From a virus (Duplodnaviria; Heunggongvirae; Uroviricota; Caudoviricetes), in the IMG/VR virus record IMGVR_UViG_2671180884_000028, positions 1-10,652 of that record: 10,652 bases of DNA; one strand, 5' to 3'. The position numbers and the translations under genes were made by a program. The notes below the pieces were generated by a model, which did no database searches, was not told the origin of the DNA, and saw only the letters and a program-made list of their open reading frames with translations. How positions within the stretch are numbered: position 1 is the stretch's first letter; each line of letters begins with the position of its first letter. Of the stretch, positions 3,747-10,652 are shown one piece after another.

Positions 3747-4046
3747 ATGAAACTTAAATATTCTGGCTTAACTGCCAGTGGCAACACTCACCCTAAATTT
3801 ACGCGCGGTGATATTTACCGCGACCAGTACGGCGGCACGGTAATGATTAAGGGCGTGGCGGGACGGTGCGTAACTTACCGCCGTGAAGGTTACGAATATG
3901 ATTGCGTGATGCCTGTTTATCAGTTCCGGCGTGATTTTTCTCTGGTACAGACCGCGCCGCATAACGTGCCCACCAGCAACGCCAGAGCACGGGCAAACAT
4001 CCAGAAGCTGAAAACCATGATTAACGGATTCAGGGGTAAAAAATGA
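3747..4046 (+). CDS. Hypothetical protein (99 aa)
   Basis: ATG 3747 with GGAGAA at 3733-3738. Its stop overlaps the primase start (ATGA at 4043-4046), indicating translational coupling. Confidence 0.55.
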   Translation: MKLKYSGLTASGNTHPKFTRGDIYRDQYGGTVMIKGVAGRCVTYRREGYEYDCVMPVYQFRRDFSLVQTAPHNVPTSNARARANIQKLKTMINGFRGKK

Positions 4047-5797
4047 AACTGGCACCGAACGTAAAACAGCAGTCACGCGGCATAAAACACAAAGAAACAG
4101 AAGTCATTATTTTTGCGGGTAGTGATGCCTGGTCACACGCGAAACAATGGCAGGAACATGACGCGCGTATGGCCGGAGATAATGAGCCTCCTGTGTGGCT
4201 TGGGGAGCAGCAGTTATCAGAACTGGATAAGCTGCAAATTGTGCCGGAAGGCAGAAAATCCGTGCGCATATTCAGGGCCGGACATCTTGCACCAGTAATG
4301 ATCAAGGCGATTGGTCAAAAGCTGGCGGCGGCTGGTGTACAGGATGCAAATTTTTATCCTGAGGGTATGCACGGCAAGGAGGTGCAGAACTGGCGCGAAT
4401 ACCTGGCCCGTGAACGCCAGAATCTTTCTGATGGTCTGGTCATTGAGCTTCCGGTAAAGCAAAAGGCGCAACTTTCGCAGATGGCGGACAGTGAGCGCGC
4501 GCAGTTGCTTGTCGATCGCTTTGATGGCGTTTGCGTACATCCTGAAAGTGAAATCGTTCACGTATGGCGTGGCGGGGTATGGTGTCCGGTCAGCACAATG
4601 GAACTGAGCCGCGAAATGGTGGCGATCTATTCAGAGCACAGGGCCACTTTCAGCAAGCGCGTAATCAATAACGCCGTGGAAGCATTAAAAGTTATTGCCG
4701 AACCAATGGGCGAGCCGTCCGGCGATTTGTTGCCGTTCGCCAATGGTGCGCTTGACCTGAAAACAGGGGAATTTTCCCCGCACACGCCGGAGAACTGGAT
4801 CACCACGCACAACGGCATTGAATACACGCCACCAGCACCAGGGGAGAATATCCGCGACAACGCGCCAAACTTTCATAAATGGCTTGAGCACGCAGCCGGA
4901 AAAGACCCGCGCAAGATGATGCGTATATGTGCCGCGCTGTACATGATTATGGCGAACCGGTACGACTGGCAGATGTTTATTGAGGCCACCGGAGACGGCG
5001 GGAGCGGTAAAAGTACATTCACACACATAGCCAGCCTTCTGGCAGGGAAACAGAACACGGTAAGCGCTGAGATGACATCGCTTGATGATGCTGGTGGACG
5101 TGCGCAGGTTGTCGGGAGTCGTCTTATCGTCCTGGCAGACCAGCCGAAATATACAGGCGAAGGAACGGGCATCAAGAAAATCACGGGCGGCGACCCCGTG
5201 GAAATTAACCCGAAATATGAAAAGCGTTTCACGGCGGTAATCAGGGCGGTGGTGCTGGCGACCAATAACAATCCGATGATATTCACCGAACGGGCCGGAG
5301 GTGTGGCACGTCGTCGCGTGATTTTCCGTTTCGACAATATTGTTAGTGAGGCCGAAAAAGACAGGGAGCTACCGGAAAAAATTGCGGCTGAAATCCCCGT
5401 CATTATCCGCCGCTTGCTGGCGAACTTTACCGACCCTGAAAAGGCACGGGCTTTACTCATTGAGCAGCGTGACGGTGATGAAGCTCTGGCAATAAAGCAA
5501 CAGACGGATCCGGTTATTGAGTTTTGCCAGTTCCTGAATTTTCTGGAGGAAGCGCGCGGCCTGATGATGGGGGGCGGTGGCGATTCAGTGAAGTACACGA
5601 CCAGGAACAGCCTTTACCGCGTCTATCTGGCGTTTATGGCATACGCAGGCAGGAGCAAACCGCTAAACGTGGCTGAGTTCAGCAAGGCCATGAAGCCAGC
5701 GGCGAAAGTTTACGGGCATGAATATATTACGCGAAAAGTTAAGGGAGTAACGCAGACCAACGCAATTACAACAGACGATTGCGACGCGTTTTTATAA
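4043..5797 (+). CDS. Replication initiator: primase / SF3 helicase (P4 alpha-like / D5-family Pri-Rep protein)
   Basis: 584 aa. Walker A motif ATGDGGSGKST and Walker B-like RLIVLADQP in the C-terminal half. Size and layout match satellite primase-helicases. An iteron-rich origin lies immediately downstream. Confidence 0.85.
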   Translation: MKLAPNVKQQSRGIKHKETEVIIFAGSDAWSHAKQWQEHDARMAGDNEPPVWLGEQQLSELDKLQIVPEGRKSVRIFRAGHLAPVMIKAIGQKLAAAGVQDANFYPEGMHGKEVQNWREYLARERQNLSDGLVIELPVKQKAQLSQMADSERAQLLVDRFDGVCVHPESEIVHVWRGGVWCPVSTMELSREMVAIYSEHRATFSKRVINNAVEALKVIAEPMGEPSGDLLPFANGALDLKTGEFSPHTPENWITTHNGIEYTPPAPGENIRDNAPNFHKWLEHAAGKDPRKMMRICAALYMIMANRYDWQMFIEATGDGGSGKSTFTHIASLLAGKQNTVSAEMTSLDDAGGRAQVVGSRLIVLADQPKYTGEGTGIKKITGGDPVEINPKYEKRFTAVIRAVVLATNNNPMIFTERAGGVARRRVIFRFDNIVSEAEKDRELPEKIAAEIPVIIRRLLANFTDPEKARALLIEQRDGDEALAIKQQTDPVIEFCQFLNFLEEARGLMMGGGGDSVKYTTRNSLYRVYLAFMAYAGRSKPLNVAEFSKAMKPAAKVYGHEYITRKVKGVTQTNAITTDDCDAFL

Positions 5798-6395: not shown

Positions 6396-6809
6396 CAGCA
6401 CAGATAGCGGCTTACGGGCGGCTGGTGGCTGGTGGCTGACCCACAGTTAAAGACCACCAGCAAGGGCACACAAATGACGATGGCGAGTATGGCGGTTCCC
6501 CTGACATGCAGCCAGGCTGATGACGGAACGGCGACGATGTGGTTATCCGTCCTGGCGTTTGGCAGACAGGCCGACGCACTGGCAAAACACCGCAAAGGCG
6601 AGCTGGTGAGCGTGGCGGGTAACATGCAGGTAAGCCAGTGGACAGGCCAGAACGGCGAAACGCGGCAGGGCTGGCAGGTTATCGCAGACAGTGTAATCAG
6701 TGCCCGTGCTGCCCGTCCTGGCGGGAGCAGACGTACAACCACAGGCACACAGGGTAATCAGCCACCAGCGGGAGGCGATGACCCTTACGGTGACGGTATT
6801 CCGTTCTGA
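6392..6809 (+). pseudogene. ssb: Single-stranded DNA-binding protein (SSB-like), disrupted by a frameshift
   Basis: ATG 6392 opens MTAQIAAYGRLVAGG and then hits TGA at 6437-6439. The rest of the protein continues in the +1 frame (ADPQLKTTSKGTQMTMASMAVPL...GWQVIADSVISA...DDPYGDGIPF) with the SSB acidic DIPF tail. A tandem 7-bp duplication GCTGGTG/GCTGGTG at 6421-6434 accounts for the shift; removing one copy restores ...GRLVADPQLK... in frame. Confidence 0.65.
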
Positions 6810-7331: not shown

Positions 7332-7538
7332 ATGGCTGAAGAGAAAAAAGGCGGTGTTTCGGTGTACATAAGCCCCGACATCGTGAAGGCGCTCAAGGAA
7401 CGCCACCAGCAGAACGTAAAAGCAGGCATTGCGGCAGGACTTGATCCGCTGGCGATGGTTGAGCCGTCAACAGGCTGGCAGGTGCGCGCCTACTTACGTG
7501 CGGCGCTGGGTATGAATCAGGTTCACGGGGGTGAATAA
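7332..7538 (+). CDS. Hypothetical head-module protein (68 aa), translationally coupled to the major capsid gene
   Basis: ATG 7332 with RBS AAGAGGAA (7315-7322). Stop overlaps the capsid gene start (TAATG at 7536-7540). Position suggests a scaffold or assembly factor, but there is no sequence evidence for this. Confidence 0.5.
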   Translation: MAEEKKGGVSVYISPDIVKALKERHQQNVKAGIAAGLDPLAMVEPSTGWQVRAYLRAALGMNQVHGGE

Positions 7539-8593
7539 TGGCAGGCAAAGCAATGGCACTTAACACTAACCAGCTTTTTACATACCTGAATCGCGGGGAT
7601 ATTGCGGAATTTAAATTCAGTCCGCTGTTTACCACGCTGTTTTTCCCGAACGTGGCGACATTCAGCACCCAAAACATCATGCTGGATACCCTGGACATTG
7701 AAGAAGTCACCATGTCGGCGTTTTGTTCGCCTATGGTTGGCAGTCAGGTACAGCGCGATAAAGGGTATGAAACCAGCACAATCAAACCTGGCTACATGAA
7801 GCCAAAGCACGAAATCGATCCAACAAAAACCATCATGCGCATGGCTGGAGAAGATCCGGCACAGCTTAACGACCCTACCTACCGCCGTATGCGCCTGATT
7901 ACTGGCAACATGCGCCGCCAGATAAACGCCATTAAAGCGCGCGTGGAATGGCTGGCGGTGAATGCGATAACGACCGGAAAAAACATCATTGAGGGCGAAG
8001 GCATAGAACGCTATGAAATCGACTGGAAAATACCGGAAAACTGCATCATAGAGCAGGCCAAGGGTAAAAAATGGTCCGAGCATGATAAAGATATTTACGA
8101 TCCAATCTATGACATCGAACTATACGCAGATCAGGCAGGTTGCCCCGCCAACGTCATGATTATGGGCGCTGAGGTATGGCGCACGTTACGCAGCTTTAAA
8201 AAATTCCGCGAACTGTACGATCTTTCCCGTGGTTCAGAATCCGCCGCAGAACTGGCCTGTAAAAACCTGGGTGAAGTAGTGAGCTTTAAAGGCTATCTGG
8301 GCGATATTGCCCTTATCGTCTATTCCGGCAAATACACTGACAGCGACGGTACCGAAAAATATTTCCTTGAGCCTGATTTGCTGGTCCTGGGTAACACCAA
8401 CAATAAAGGGCTGGTGGCCTATGGTGCGATTATGGATCAGGAAGCGGTAAGAACGGGCGCAACGCAAAACATGTTCTACCCGAAAAACTGGATTGAAGAC
8501 GGCGATCCGGCGATTGAGTACGTTCAGACGCACAGCGCACCGCAGCCGGTACCGGCAGATATTCGCAAATTTGTTACCGTCAAAATTGGTTAA
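7538..8593 (+). CDS. Major capsid protein, lambda gpE family (HK97 fold)
   Basis: 351 aa. Collinear with lambda gpE as recalled: EFKFSPLFTTLFF vs KFKFDPLFLRLFF; PGYMKPKHEIDP vs PGYVKPKHEVNP; GEDPAQLNDPTYRRMRLITGNMR vs DEDPQNLADPAYRRRRIIMQNMR; VSFKGYLGDIALIVYSGKY vs VSYKGMYGDVAIVVYSGQY; FYPKNWIEDGDPA vs RYPKNWVTTGDPA; C-terminus KFVTVKIG vs EFVSVQLA. Confidence 0.9.
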   Translation: MAGKAMALNTNQLFTYLNRGDIAEFKFSPLFTTLFFPNVATFSTQNIMLDTLDIEEVTMSAFCSPMVGSQVQRDKGYETSTIKPGYMKPKHEIDPTKTIMRMAGEDPAQLNDPTYRRMRLITGNMRRQINAIKARVEWLAVNAITTGKNIIEGEGIERYEIDWKIPENCIIEQAKGKKWSEHDKDIYDPIYDIELYADQAGCPANVMIMGAEVWRTLRSFKKFRELYDLSRGSESAAELACKNLGEVVSFKGYLGDIALIVYSGKYTDSDGTEKYFLEPDLLVLGNTNNKGLVAYGAIMDQEAVRTGATQNMFYPKNWIEDGDPAIEYVQTHSAPQPVPADIRKFVTVKIG

Positions 8594-8604: not shown

Positions 8605-8940
8605 ATGGACACTCCATACATTGAGTTATTTGCAGGCAGTCAGCAGGTATCCACGACGCTGGTACATTTTGCCGCTGATGCTGGCGTCATTCAGGAATTT
8701 ACCCCGCTGATGCTGGCGGACAATGGCGAGTTTAAGCCGTGGGATGGTCAGGAATCTGGCAAGGCTGTTTATCTGACCTCGTACCCTGTGGACACGTCAA
8801 AGCAAAAATCAGCACAGTGTTACAAGACGGGGATATTTAATATCGCCGCCGTAAACTGGCCTGAGAGCGTCGACACTGACGCGAAAAAATGCGCCGCCTT
8901 TGCGGGTTCTGGCGTATCCGTTCAGCCGCTGGCGCGATAA
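8605..8940 (+). CDS. Head decoration / stabilisation protein, lambda gpD-like
   Basis: 111 aa; ATG 8605 with RBS GGGGGA. Matches lambda gpD as recalled: TPLMLADNGEFKPWDG vs TPLMLDTSSRKLVAWDG; CYKTGIFNIAAVNWPE vs FYKSGTFRYEDVLWPE; DAKKCAAFAGSGVS vs DETKKRTAFAGTAIS. Confidence 0.8.
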   Translation: MDTPYIELFAGSQQVSTTLVHFAADAGVIQEFTPLMLADNGEFKPWDGQESGKAVYLTSYPVDTSKQKSAQCYKTGIFNIAAVNWPESVDTDAKKCAAFAGSGVSVQPLAR

Positions 8941-8952
8941 GCAGGGGGAACG

Positions 8953-9366
8953 ATGGCAACGAATGAAAGCATCATGACGCTACCGCTGGCGAGTAAATTT
9001 AAAGCCGAAGCGCGGGCAATGGCTGACAGAGGTTTATCAACCTACGAGGCCGTATATCAACTCAACAAACTGGAAGAGCAGGACAAGCCGCGCGCTGATG
9101 CGATTATGGCGCTTCATGAACATAACGACTATCAGCCGCTGTTACGTGCAATGGCAAACGTGCCATGTATTAGCGTCGATAATGCTCGTGAAATCCTGAA
9201 CATGACCATAGAGCAGGAGCGCCCAAAGGTTGCGCCGGAGCTTACCGCAGCCTTTGAAAACTTTATGGACATGCACAGCCCGAAAGCCGTATCACCCGGC
9301 ATGGCATACGATGGCAGAAACCAGGGCGATGACGGCGACATCGATCGCATACTGAAAACCATCTGA
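8953..9366 (+). CDS. Hypothetical protein (137 aa) at the end of the head module
   Basis: ATG 8953 with RBS AGGGGGAA (8943-8950). Followed by a terminator hairpin. No recognisable homology. Confidence 0.55.
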   Translation: MATNESIMTLPLASKFKAEARAMADRGLSTYEAVYQLNKLEEQDKPRADAIMALHEHNDYQPLLRAMANVPCISVDNAREILNMTIEQERPKVAPELTAAFENFMDMHSPKAVSPGMAYDGRNQGDDGDIDRILKTI

Positions 9367-9371
9367 GACAA

Positions 9372-9395
9372 GGCCGGAGAAATCCGGCTTTTTTT
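9372..9395 (+). terminator. Rho-independent terminator (second copy of the hairpin at 7098-7120)
   Basis: GGCCGGA-gaaa-TCCGGC followed by T7. Sits immediately upstream of the cosQ-like sequence. Confidence 0.6.
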
Positions 9396-9572
9396 ACGGG
9401 TCCTTTCCGGCATATGGACCCGTTACGGGGCGGCGACCTCGCGCGTTTTCGCTATTTATGAGCCTTTTCAGGGGGGTGGTGGTGGTTTTGTTGTTTGCTC
9501 TATCTTTATGAATGAAAAGGGAAAGATGCAAACAATACACCAACCTGAAGCAGTAATTAAGTTGGTGTATTA
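9396..9572 (+). other. cos site A (cosQ-like, cosN, divergent cosB), forward orientation, upstream of terS
   Basis: ACGGGTCCTTTCCGG...CCGTTACG followed by the exact lambda cohesive-end 12-mer GGGCGGCGACCT (9428-9439), then CGCGCGTTTTCGCTATTTATGAG, closely matching the lambda genome left end as recalled. The distal part lacks lambda R-site motifs and instead has inverted repeats AATACACCAAC / GTTGGTGTATT (9530-9540 / 9561-9571) and TGTTTGC / GCAAACA (9494-9500 / 9517-9523). Confidence 0.75.
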
Positions 9573-10115
9573 ATGAAATCGCACCTGATGAACAAAAAAA
9601 ACATGGCGAAAAGCTGCCGTGTAAGTGCGACAGCGTTCGACAAGTGGGGAGTGACTCCCGTTGAACGTAAAGGCCGTGAGGCGTTTTATGATGTTGCCAG
9701 CGTGATAGACAATAGGGTTAACAATGCAATTAGCCAGCTTACAAACGACAAAGGCGATATTGATGATGATGAACTCTTACGAGTCAGGATCAGATTACTG
9801 ACAGCACAGGCGGAGGCGCAGGAACTTAAAAACGAGCGCGATCGCGGTGACGTGATTGATACTGAGTTTTGCCTGTACGCGCTTTCAAAGCTGGCGAGTC
9901 AGATTTCATCAATCATGGACAGCCTCCCGCTTACTATGCAAAGGAGCTTCCCACAGATTACCCCCGCCATGCTGGACAGGCTTAAAAGGGAAGTGGTTAA
10001 AGCCTGTAATGCCAGTGCCAGAGTTGCCGACAACCTCCCACAGATACTGGCTGATTACTTGAAAGAAACAACCGGAAACGTACCGGAAAAGTTGCTACAG
10101 AAGAAAGGCAAGTAA
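9573..10115 (+). CDS. Terminase small subunit, lambda Nu1-like (TerS)
   Basis: 180 aa. Middle and C-terminal regions are collinear with lambda Nu1 as recalled: LTAQAEAQELKNERDRGDVIDTEFCLYALSKLASQISSIMDSLPLTMQRSFPQ vs LTRAQADAQELKNARDSAEVVETAFCTFVLSRIAGEIASILDGLPLSVQRRFPE. The N-terminal wHTH region is much more divergent. Alternative start ATG 9588 (MNKKNMAK) aligns with Nu1 MEVNKKQLA. No strong RBS at either start. Confidence 0.85.
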   Translation: MKSHLMNKKNMAKSCRVSATAFDKWGVTPVERKGREAFYDVASVIDNRVNNAISQLTNDKGDIDDDELLRVRIRLLTAQAEAQELKNERDRGDVIDTEFCLYALSKLASQISSIMDSLPLTMQRSFPQITPAMLDRLKREVVKACNASARVADNLPQILADYLKETTGNVPEKLLQKKGK

Positions 10116-10340
10116 CAGAAGCGCAATTATTGAACAAAAATGAGAAACGACATGAAAGCGTCATAAATCGCCATTTCAGATGATTACCGTGTCGTTTCTT
10201 TTTATTGTGTATCTATTTAAAAACAAATAGTTATGTTCGAGAAGTACCGACATGATTTTTCCAGAAAAATTTTCATAAACAGATAAAAACCGCGAGGTCG
10301 CCGCCCCGTAACGGGCCATAATTCCAGGAAGGACCCGACG
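10116..10340 (-). other. cos site B (lambda-like cosQ-cosN-cosB) in inverted orientation, downstream of terS
   Basis: On the minus strand: CGGGTCCTTCCTGGAATTATGGCCCGTTACG, then GGGCGGCGACCT (plus 10295-10306), then CGCGGTTTTTATCTGTTTATGAAAATTTTTCTGG, then R-site-like AAGAAACGACACGG and ATGTCGTTTCTCA (perfect 10-bp inverted repeat at plus 10152-10161 / 10190-10199). This is collinear with lambda cosN-I2-R3-R2 as recalled. A 25-bp core is a perfect inverted repeat of cos A (9419-9443 vs 10291-10315). Confidence 0.7.
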
Positions 10341-10370
10341 ACACCAGACTATCAGAACGATGGGGGCACA

Positions 10371-10652
10371 ATGACAGAAGCCGAACTACTGCGATTAATC
10401 CGTCGCGTTGCCGGAATCAGCCAGCAGGCTGACGAACAGGCCACGCAGCCGGACAGCGTGACAGCCGAAAATTATGTGCGTGTTGTTGCGGAGGTGATGC
10501 GCCGTGATGGTATCCAGCTTAATGATGCGGATATGCGCGACATACGGATCCGCGTTCTTGAAATGCTGGCCTACCGTCGCCGCGTGCAGACGTACAGGGA
10601 AAAAGCAAAAATAACGTACCAGTGGAAGAAGCCGGAGCGATTACGGCGGTAA
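10371..10652 (+). CDS. Hypothetical protein (93 aa) just beyond cos B
   Basis: ATG 10371 with G-rich RBS (GGGGG at 10362-10366); stop TAA 10650-10652 at the window end. No recognisable homology. Confidence 0.45.
   Translation: MTEAELLRLIRRVAGISQQADEQATQPDSVTAENYVRVVAEVMRRDGIQLNDADMRDIRIRVLEMLAYRRRVQTYREKAKITYQWKKPERLRR

Follow-up and report, generated by a model that had tools for sequence, protein, structure and literature searches.

A Nu1-type TerS gene with its own cosB in a satellite island

The window analysed here, i.e. the whole 10,652-bp stretch of IMG/VR virus record IMGVR_UViG_2671180884_000028, comprises a complete satellite island in which terS, a gene for a small terminase subunit (TerS) of the Nu1 family, directly follows a cohesive-end packaging site (cos). 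The cos consists of a cosN cutting site with the cohesive-end sequence of phage lambda and of a cosB binding region with repeats of its own. The region is most likely the packaging-specificity module of a phage-inducible chromosomal island (PICI) of the EcCICFT073/EcCIIHE3034 type. Judging from its sequence, the module is rather likely to represent a cos-type counterpart of the strategy used by Staphylococcus aureus pathogenicity islands (SaPIs), separate from the Rpp route of related PICIs: TerS would bind its own R3-like site, oligomerise and bring the large terminase subunit (TerL) of a helper phage to the shared cosN. In SaPIs it is the island TerS that redirects the helper TerL, according to work cited in PMC6739421 and PMC6092414.

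The packaging module comprises the following features (window coordinates):
9374-9397, plus strand: terminator-like hairpin (GCCGGA-GAAA-TCCGGC plus a T run) between the 137-amino-acid (aa) open reading frame (ORF) and cos, just 5' of the latter, read from the sequence
9397-9468, plus strand: left cos arm, i.e. a cosQ/R4-like stretch, cosN and about 30 bp beyond
9428-9439, plus strand: cosN cohesive-end sequence GGGCGGCGACCT, identical to that of lambda
9478-9498, plus strand: R3-like element GGTGGTGGTTTTGTTGTTTGC, bp 51-71 from cosN
9526-9546, minus strand: R2-like element, reverse complement AGGTTGGTGTATTGTTTGCAT
9558-9578, plus strand: R1-like element TAAGTTGGTGTATTAATGAAA, overlapping the terS start codon
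9573-10115, plus strand: terS, 180 aa, Nu1 family (Pfam PF07471)
9573-9743, plus strand: DNA-binding domain of TerS (residues 1-57), N15 type, with a compact winged helix-turn-helix fold
9798-9944, plus strand: central block of TerS (residues 76-124), conserved and helical, corresponding in position to the region of Nu1 that mediates self-assembly
9945-10112, plus strand: C-terminal module of TerS (residues 125-180), specific to the islands and with a basic tail, located where Nu1 has its gpA-binding domain
10141-10257, minus strand: phage-21-type cosB of a second cos (by comparison with phage 21 record M81255), with R3 at 10257-10242, I1 at 10235-10221, an R2-like element at about 10201-10187 and an R1-like element at about 10158-10141
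10266-10337, minus strand: right cos arm with cosN at 10306-10295, the partner of the left 72-nt arm

The initial annotation of this stretch had proposed an island-encoded, Nu1-like TerS of 180 aa, and this was borne out by an intact ORF in a PICI without TerL and by a match to the Phage_Nu1 family (PF07471) with E=2.3e-23 and 83 bits (cutoff 30), in which residues 33-148 only were aligned to the model. In BLASTP the protein showed 35 % identity to lambda Nu1 (E=1e-34) and 46 % to N15 gp1 (E=2e-53). N15 gp1 was also the best match in 50,697 phage records, among which no phage TerS more than 46 % identical overall was found, so the gene is not a near-identical copy of a helper-phage Nu1, the finding that the annotation had named as refuting it. 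No TerL gene was found anywhere in the window, either in the ORF list or with Pfam. terS is followed by the inverted second cos and a 93-aa ORF, with no translationally overlapping gpA-type gene behind it, which identifies it as the TerS of a satellite and not of a phage.

The cosB region and its co-occurrence with the DNA-binding domain

The left cos arm aligns with the left ends of lambda, N15 and phage 21 and pairs with 10266-10337 as a 72-nt inverted repeat (I1, 79 % complementary). The layout is that of Nu1-type systems: terS stands directly after cosN-cosB, its ATG being bp 146 counted from cosN bp 1, and repeated R sites lie at the canonical distance. The hairpin at 9374-9397 is conserved in loci L001 and L025; it was not listed by the consensus terminator scan.

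No lambda or phage 21 R sequences were found in 9450-9572. Two inverted repeats lie in this stretch, one of 18 nt (9481-9498/9528-9545, 78 % complementary) and a perfect one of 11 nt (9534-9544/9561-9571); they were reached in only 20 and 2, respectively, of 2000 dinucleotide-preserving shuffles and are therefore real, non-chance repeats of cosB. The R3-like element at 9478-9498 is probably the main binding site of the island TerS, a proposal based on its position and sequence. R3 occupies bp 50-65 from cosN in lambda and bp 48-60 in N15, where it has been mapped experimentally (PMC9026076), and the island element resembles the N15 R3 GAGGTTGTTGTTT. The earlier claim of a cosB private to the island thus held as regards the missing lambda and phage 21 sites and the non-random repeats, and has to be qualified as regards the core, which is N15-like.

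The presence of the R3-like core TGGTGGTKTTGTTRTTY was checked in the fetched loci, 12 with the island-type DNA-binding domain and 14 others, the latter including lambda, N15, 21, PhiR5_1, prophages, the Rpp-type island and one island whose DNA-binding domain is of another kind. In the window the core has a single occurrence (0.01 expected). It is found exactly once in each of 11 loci with the island-type domain, and with one mismatch in the twelfth (L024). None of the 14 other loci, among them the lambda, 21 and O157 prophage cos sites, contained an exact match. The core is kept in Enterobacter/Citrobacter islands despite a TerS of only 59 % identity and a diverged surrounding cosB. The DNA-binding domain and the cosB core therefore travel together (12/12 loci, at most one mismatch), and a satellite without TerL encodes a TerS homologue next to a cosB core different from the lambda, 21 and O157 prophage sites.

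The R2-like element is inverted relative to R3, as in lambda; its core AATAYACCAACCT is conserved in the E. coli alleles and not in the Enterobacter/Citrobacter islands. The R1-like element forms the perfect 11-nt inverted repeat with R2 and is degenerate in other alleles, with no compensating changes in the other arm.

The N15-type DNA-binding domain also occurs in some lambdoid prophages. Prophages of E. coli (L021/L022) and the prophage L019 encode a 168-aa TerS with this domain, and their cosB R3 sites are of GTTGTTGTTTT type, the main difference being GTTGTTG in place of the island GGTGGTGG. The specificity class of the island is thus shared with a minority of prophages.

Domain organisation of TerS

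Region-wise identity of TerS, computed on a 99-sequence alignment, was as follows (given in the order lambda Nu1; N15 gp1; mean of 78 E. coli island alleles; mean of 18 Enterobacter/Citrobacter island proteins):
Residues 1-50, N-terminal: 36 %; 58 %; 95 %; 76 %
Residues 51-75, linker: 16 %; 36 %; 89 %; 56 %
Residues 76-124, central: 55 %; 51 %; 96.5 %; 65.5 %
Residues 125-166, C-terminal: 31 %; 31 %; 76 %; 32 %
Residues 167-180, tail: 70 % among the E. coli island alleles

The winged-helix N-terminal domain is by its sequence of N15 type and is the best-conserved module within the island family. Residues 5-62 are 55 % identical to N15 gp1, and a search of the phage records with residues 1-62 retrieved N15 and Pseudomonas lambdoid phages at 55-60 % and no lambda-like E. 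coli phages. An AlphaFold2 model of residues 1-80 (mean pLDDT, the predicted local confidence score, 80.8) had the order beta, alpha1, alpha2, beta-hairpin, alpha3. Its top structural matches were the DNA-binding domains of lambda-like TerS proteins 7LWR (root-mean-square deviation, rmsd, 1.8 A), 7LW0 (1.6 A), 7LXS and 6HN7_B; over the matches the probabilities were 0.96-1.00 and the rmsd 1.6-3.7 A, with E-values that were weak (0.03-0.25) because the domain is small. A sequence profile built from island proteins only matched lambda TerS 1-98 at E=0.005. The full-length model was discarded for its pLDDT of 55, the model of the N-terminal 80 residues alone being usable, and the central block was predicted as long helices with low confidence.

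The C-terminal module is the most variable region of TerS and appears, on the strength of database searches, to be specific to satellites. In Nu1-type TerS proteins the last 40 or so residues bind the N-terminus of TerL. With the C-terminal 85 residues of the island protein as a query, 1.84 billion representative proteins were searched, and all matches above 56 % identity belonged to the island family. A phage TerS carrying the module was sought as a pointer to the helper, and this approach was abandoned: the closest phage C-terminus was that of PhiR5_1 (54 % over 48 residues), and above 56 % there were island proteins only. PhiR5_1-like phages, having the closest C-terminus among phages, are candidate helpers.

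These data change the picture given by the initial annotation, in which the Nu1 central and C-terminal regions were kept and the N-terminal region was much more divergent. The central region is indeed kept (55 %), and the N-terminal fold matches TerS domains. The C-terminus, at 31 % identity to lambda, diverges at least as much as the N-terminus, is island-specific and has 14 additional residues as a tail; it is unlike that of known helpers, so that retention of a gpA-binding region follows from its position and not from its sequence. The N-terminal domain, at 36 % to lambda, is not the divergent part, being of N15 type and 95 % identical within the island alleles. The expected domain logic is thus reversed.

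Selection and modular exchange in terS

The ratio of nonsynonymous to synonymous substitution rates (dN/dS) was 0.06-0.25 across the N-terminal, central and C-terminal regions of TerS and 0.18 in the C-terminal module. In a search of 5426 complete E. coli genomes, in which terS was counted at 80 % of its length or more, the gene was intact in 759 (about 14 %), with up to 6 copies per genome. Purifying selection and the wide occurrence of intact copies indicate that terS is functional rather than decaying. Between the window and the allele of L016, dS was 0.10 in the N-terminus and central block and 1.08 in the C-terminus, with dN/dS of 0.09-0.24, a pattern that points to recombinational exchange of the entire C-terminal module while purifying selection continued, and not to decay.

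A natural chimera was found in PICI L023 (GCA_003721875.1, 7770-8585). Its 194-aa TerS (P0211) has a PhiR5_1/21-like N-terminal half, including the DNA-binding domain, and a C-terminal module of island type, and its cosB shares 81 % identity with the cosB of phage PhiR5_1. The DNA-binding domain therefore pairs with cosB. L023 and L013 have the variant cosN GGGCGGCAGACG in common, together with nearly the same C-terminal allele and with different DNA-binding domains and cosB regions. The C-terminal allele thus tentatively pairs with cosN, and a shared C-terminal allele together with a shared cosN would be expected if both face the helper TerL.

In L016/L017, which carry the P0059 TerS allele, the left cosN differs by one base (GGGCGTCGACCT). 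Their right-hand cos (about 9765-9849, minus strand) has cosN GGGCGGGAGCAT and an Rpp-like ACCACCAC cosB, and no rpp gene was called between terS and this cos.

Proposed mode of action

In the proposed mechanism residues 1-57, the N15-type winged helix, probably read the R3-like element, and the R2-like and R1-like copies may assist. Residues 76-124 probably oligomerise TerS, and residues 125-180 probably capture the TerL of a lambdoid helper phage, which would then nick the helper-type cosN and package island concatemers. A helper TerS of lambda or 21 type would not read the island cosB, nor would the island TerS read theirs, and by this mutual non-recognition packaging would be redirected. 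Competition for TerL could also interfere with the helper; if the C-terminal module outcompetes the helper TerS for TerL, one protein would both redirect packaging and interfere with the helper.

The literature searched contained no characterisation of a cos-type PICI TerS beyond a mention in 2018: EcCIIHE3034 and EcCI18098 were then reported as TerS-encoding E. coli PICIs for which no transfer was seen, with cosB, the TerS domains and the mechanism left unanalysed (PMC6092414). TerS-encoding PICIs and the principle of a satellite TerS were thus already known, and new with respect to the literature found are the cosB, the N15-type domain, the satellite-specific C-terminal module and the cassette structure described below.

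The second cos and alternative explanations

The second cos (10221-10337, minus strand), which lay outside the scope of the initial annotation, points towards the left cos. Compared with the sites of M81255, it matched R4 at 10/12 positions, I2 at 14/15, R3 at 15/16 and I1 at 13/15, and its R3 is identical to the R3 of an O157:H7 prophage, where it adjoins the Nu1/A genes of that prophage. Just past the terS stop codon, the plus strand at 10141-10208 folds into a 13-bp RNA hairpin with a U run (-27.5 kcal/mol, z=-3.6), made up of the R2-like and R1-like copies in the right cosB; this hairpin may also serve as the terS terminator.

Several points weigh against the proposal that the island TerS recruits a helper TerL. 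Since the 21-type cos is complete, the island could be packaged by a helper holoenzyme of 21 specificity without any TerS of its own. EcCIIHE3034, whose TerS is identical to that of the window at 179/180 positions, was not transferred on induction of the resident prophages of its host in the only published test (PMC6092414), and no helper phage is known for the island. The identity of the C-terminal module is only 31 % to the lambda/N15/O157-prophage type and does not exceed 54 % for any phage TerS, so that binding to a given TerL cannot be read from the sequence; the partner is presumably the helper TerL. The link between C-terminal allele and cosN variant was seen in two loci only (L013 and L023), and only within E. 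coli are the R2-like and R1-like repeats conserved. The left cosB was searched for an IHF consensus site with one mismatch allowed, and none was present. A scan of 9300-10400 for sigma-70-like promoters gave none, and cos is preceded by a terminator-like hairpin, which puts the expression route of terS in doubt.

An Rpp-like action, in which the island TerS co-assembles with the helper TerS through its central block, and the mixed oligomers leave the phage cosB, favour the island cosB and use the helper subunits to reach TerL, is conceivable and rather unlikely. It would be in line with the central block being the part best conserved with phages (55 % to lambda, 51 % to N15), with a C-terminal module that resembles no helper C-terminus, and with the Rpp that occupies the same slot in a sister island and acts by binding the helper TerS (PMC6739421). 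The C-terminal module of TerS, however, is of full length, is held at a dN/dS of 0.18 and aligns column by column with the Nu1 C-terminus, whereas Rpp proteins have 135-153 aa and miss the last 30-40 residues (PMC9026076). Moreover, Rpp uses its DNA-binding domain and helix alpha3 and not a Nu1-type central domain (PMC6739421). The assignment to a solution different from Rpp, made in the initial annotation, was accordingly upheld: an rppA-like gene fills the same slot in the sister island L002, and TerS lacks a match to RppC.

It is unlikely that the repeats in 9450-9572 serve as an RNA or DNA hairpin controlling translation or transcription of terS and not as TerS sites. The perfect 11-nt repeat (9534-9544/9561-9571) does end one base before the ATG, and its stem would sequester the weak GGTG ribosome-binding site. 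Yet the 3' arm varies in other alleles (GTGGGGATATT, GTGGGTGTATT) beside an invariant 5' arm and without compensation, the conserved R3-like element lies outside the hairpin, and the R3(+), R2(-), R1(+) orientations mirror lambda cosB. That terS is an inert relic of a defective prophage, and the island relies on the phage-type right cos alone, is likewise unlikely. The failure to mobilise EcCIIHE3034, the complete 21-type cos and the RefSeq label of the gene, merely a generic terminase small subunit, would agree with such a relic, but a relic would not be expected to show the purifying selection on all three regions of TerS, the intact ORF in 759 genomes in up to 6 copies or the matching cosB core conserved across genera. 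Furthermore, islands L007-L010, L014 and L015 have the TerS-type cos only, the second cos not being found in the fetched sequence. Recruitment of the helper TerL by the island TerS accordingly remains the preferred reading.

TerS and Rpp as alternative fillings of one slot

Over the stretches up to 9461 and from 10273 on, the window shares 92-93 % identity with the sister island L002; window positions 9462-10272 (versus L002 11082-11764) have no homology to it. In this slot L002 carries, on the opposite strand, a 144-aa gene of the published RppA length with a DNA-binding-type N-terminus. The gene immediately follows the right-hand cos, and the cosB there contains ACCACCACC, the core reported for Rpp-type islands (PMC6739421, PMC9026076). 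Since the same arms enclose either terS or an rpp gene, TerS and Rpp are alternative fillings of one slot. The window protein itself does not have the hallmarks of Rpp (135-153 aa, no Nu1-type C-terminus), having 180 aa with full Nu1 central and C-terminal regions. The 180-aa, 137-aa and 93-aa ORFs were considered as possible Rpp alleles and dismissed, as none matches RppC or any PDB chain by sequence; in particular, phmmer found no match of TerS to RppC (6HLK) at E<=1.

The search of the 5426 genomes retrieved the RppA cassette at full length in 53 genomes and any match to it in 269, versus 759 for terS; the commoner packaging solution is thus the unstudied one. The cassette between the cos arms was inverted in 2 of the 5426 genomes, L024 (E. 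coli PM4-5, NZ_CP096834, 2869-3620) and NZ_CP155555; there, with the capsid genes as reference, terS lies on the minus strand, and the left arm is adjoined by the 21-type cosB. Evidently, recombination between the 72-nt inverted cos arms flips the cassette.

A broader view may be put forward tentatively and with some doubt: enterobacterial PICIs may carry a swappable, invertible packaging cassette, with either an rpp gene or a modular Nu1-type terS, between convergent cosQ-cosN arms. The DNA-binding domain of TerS would co-vary with R3, and the satellite-only C-terminal module with cosN and presumably with the helper TerL.

ACCACCACC, which forms the invariant core of R3 in the Rpp type (L002 11748-11740, minus strand, bp 55-63 from cosN), is the reverse complement of GGTGGTGG, a part of R3 in the TerS type (window 9478-9486, bp 50-58), and the two are nearly equidistant from cosN. 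This complementarity could be due to shared ancestry, to a common architectural element or to coincidence.

Comparison with known packaging systems

A known system of similar architecture is the Rpp system of EcCICFT073-type PICIs (PMC6739421; PMC9026076), with a backbone 92-93 % identical, two convergent cos sites, and a specificity gene that directly follows a helper-type cosN and a non-helper cosB and starts with a winged-helix domain. Rpp proteins, however, have no Nu1-type central/C-terminal region and require the helper TerS, whereas the window TerS is a full-length Nu1 homologue; it is 21 % identical to the Rpp-like protein of L002. Rpp proteins have a C-terminal dimerisation domain specific to them and bind the helper TerS via the DNA-binding domain and helix alpha3. 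The cosB cores differ as well, being ACCACCACC in the Rpp type and GGTGGTGG-TTTGTTGTTT in the window.

The TerS_S of SaPIs (Ubeda et al. 2007, as cited in PMC6739421) is likewise a satellite TerS homologue with its own site that uses the helper TerL. It operates by headful (pac) packaging, and its TerS family is unrelated, whereas the window system is cos-type, of the Nu1 family and shares cosN with the helper. SaPIs also require Ppi to block the phage TerS, and no counterpart of Ppi was identified in the window island.

N15 gp1 shares with the island TerS the compact DNA-binding domain (55-58 % identity) and the gaps relative to lambda in the helix-turn-helix loop, in the wing and after alpha3. 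The N15 R3 and the island R3-like element are related (GTTGTTGTTT-like) and lie at a similar distance from cosN. The C-terminal half of gp1 closely matches that of lambda, in contrast to the island module, which is 31 % identical to both. N15 cosB has R3 only (PMC9026076), whereas the island cosB adds the R2-like and R1-like inverted copies; the N15 cosN GGGCGGCGTCCG also differs from that of the island.

With lambda Nu1 and its cosB (R3-I1-R2-R1) the island shares the protein family, the three-part protein, the order cosQ-cosN-cosB-terS and the R3(+)/R2(-)/R1(+) arrangement. It differs in an overall identity of 35 %, in unrelated R sequences, in the absence of an IHF consensus site between R3 and R2 and in an additional 14-aa C-terminal tail of the protein.

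Significance

The satellite islands of this PICI family disseminate both virulence and accessory genes in E. coli pathogens, and O157:H7, O145, Shiga toxin-producing (STEC) and avian pathogenic (APEC) strains were among the matches. Rpp is the only cos-type route of packaging hijack worked out experimentally. Convenient handles for experiments on the TerS type are the 21-bp candidate site, the three-module split of the protein, the natural chimera L023 and the natural inversion L024. Confirmation of the function would provide PICI-based tools for DNA delivery with a pair of packaging signal and TerS independent of those of the helper.

Genetic organisation of the island and its relatives

The remaining genes of the island are listed below:
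1-1242: integrase
1739-1945: AlpA-like regulator
4043-5797: D5-type primase, replication gene
6432-6809: SSB, replication gene
between the SSB and major capsid genes: PerC regulator
7538-8593: lambda-E-type major capsid gene
8605-8940: lambda-D-type decoration gene
8953-9366: 137-aa ORF, 5' of the left cos
10371-10652: 93-aa ORF, 3' of the cos module

The integrase, AlpA, primase-type replication genes and partial morphogenesis module, together with an incomplete set of virion genes, correspond to the layout of Gram-negative PICIs as in Fillol-Salom et al. 2018 (PMC6092414). In the closest relative from a complete genome (99 % identical over 9380-10350) the island splits tqsA. EcCIIHE3034, listed at NC_017628:920272-930825 (PMC6092414), has a cosB identical to that of the window and a nearly identical second cos, and both EcCIIHE3034 and EcCI18098 show the gene order of the window from integrase through the 93-aa ORF. 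The insertion site of EcCIIHE3034 differs from that of the closest relative of the window, as it lies between cspD and clpS.

More distant relatives (L007-L010) were found on Enterobacter/Citrobacter-type contigs, with a TerS of the same family (59 % identical) at 9001-9513. These islands sit within the major capsid gene of a lambdoid prophage, i.e. they are helper-embedded PICIs. Their gene content includes FRG-domain and DUF3892 genes, and a single cos was found in the sequence fetched. As for the pairing of such an island with the TerS of its own helper, the helper (L019) or a deleted prophage (L021, L022) was present on the contigs, and in no case both partners; moreover, the L019 cosN differs from that of L007, so no true island/helper pair was obtained.

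The 137-aa and 93-aa ORFs gave no Pfam or PDB match, and both are kept in TerS-type and Rpp-type islands. A single RefSeq protein accession for the 137-aa product is common to L001 and L002. In the helper-embedded islands the ORF at the corresponding position has a match to an AlpA-type helix-turn-helix.

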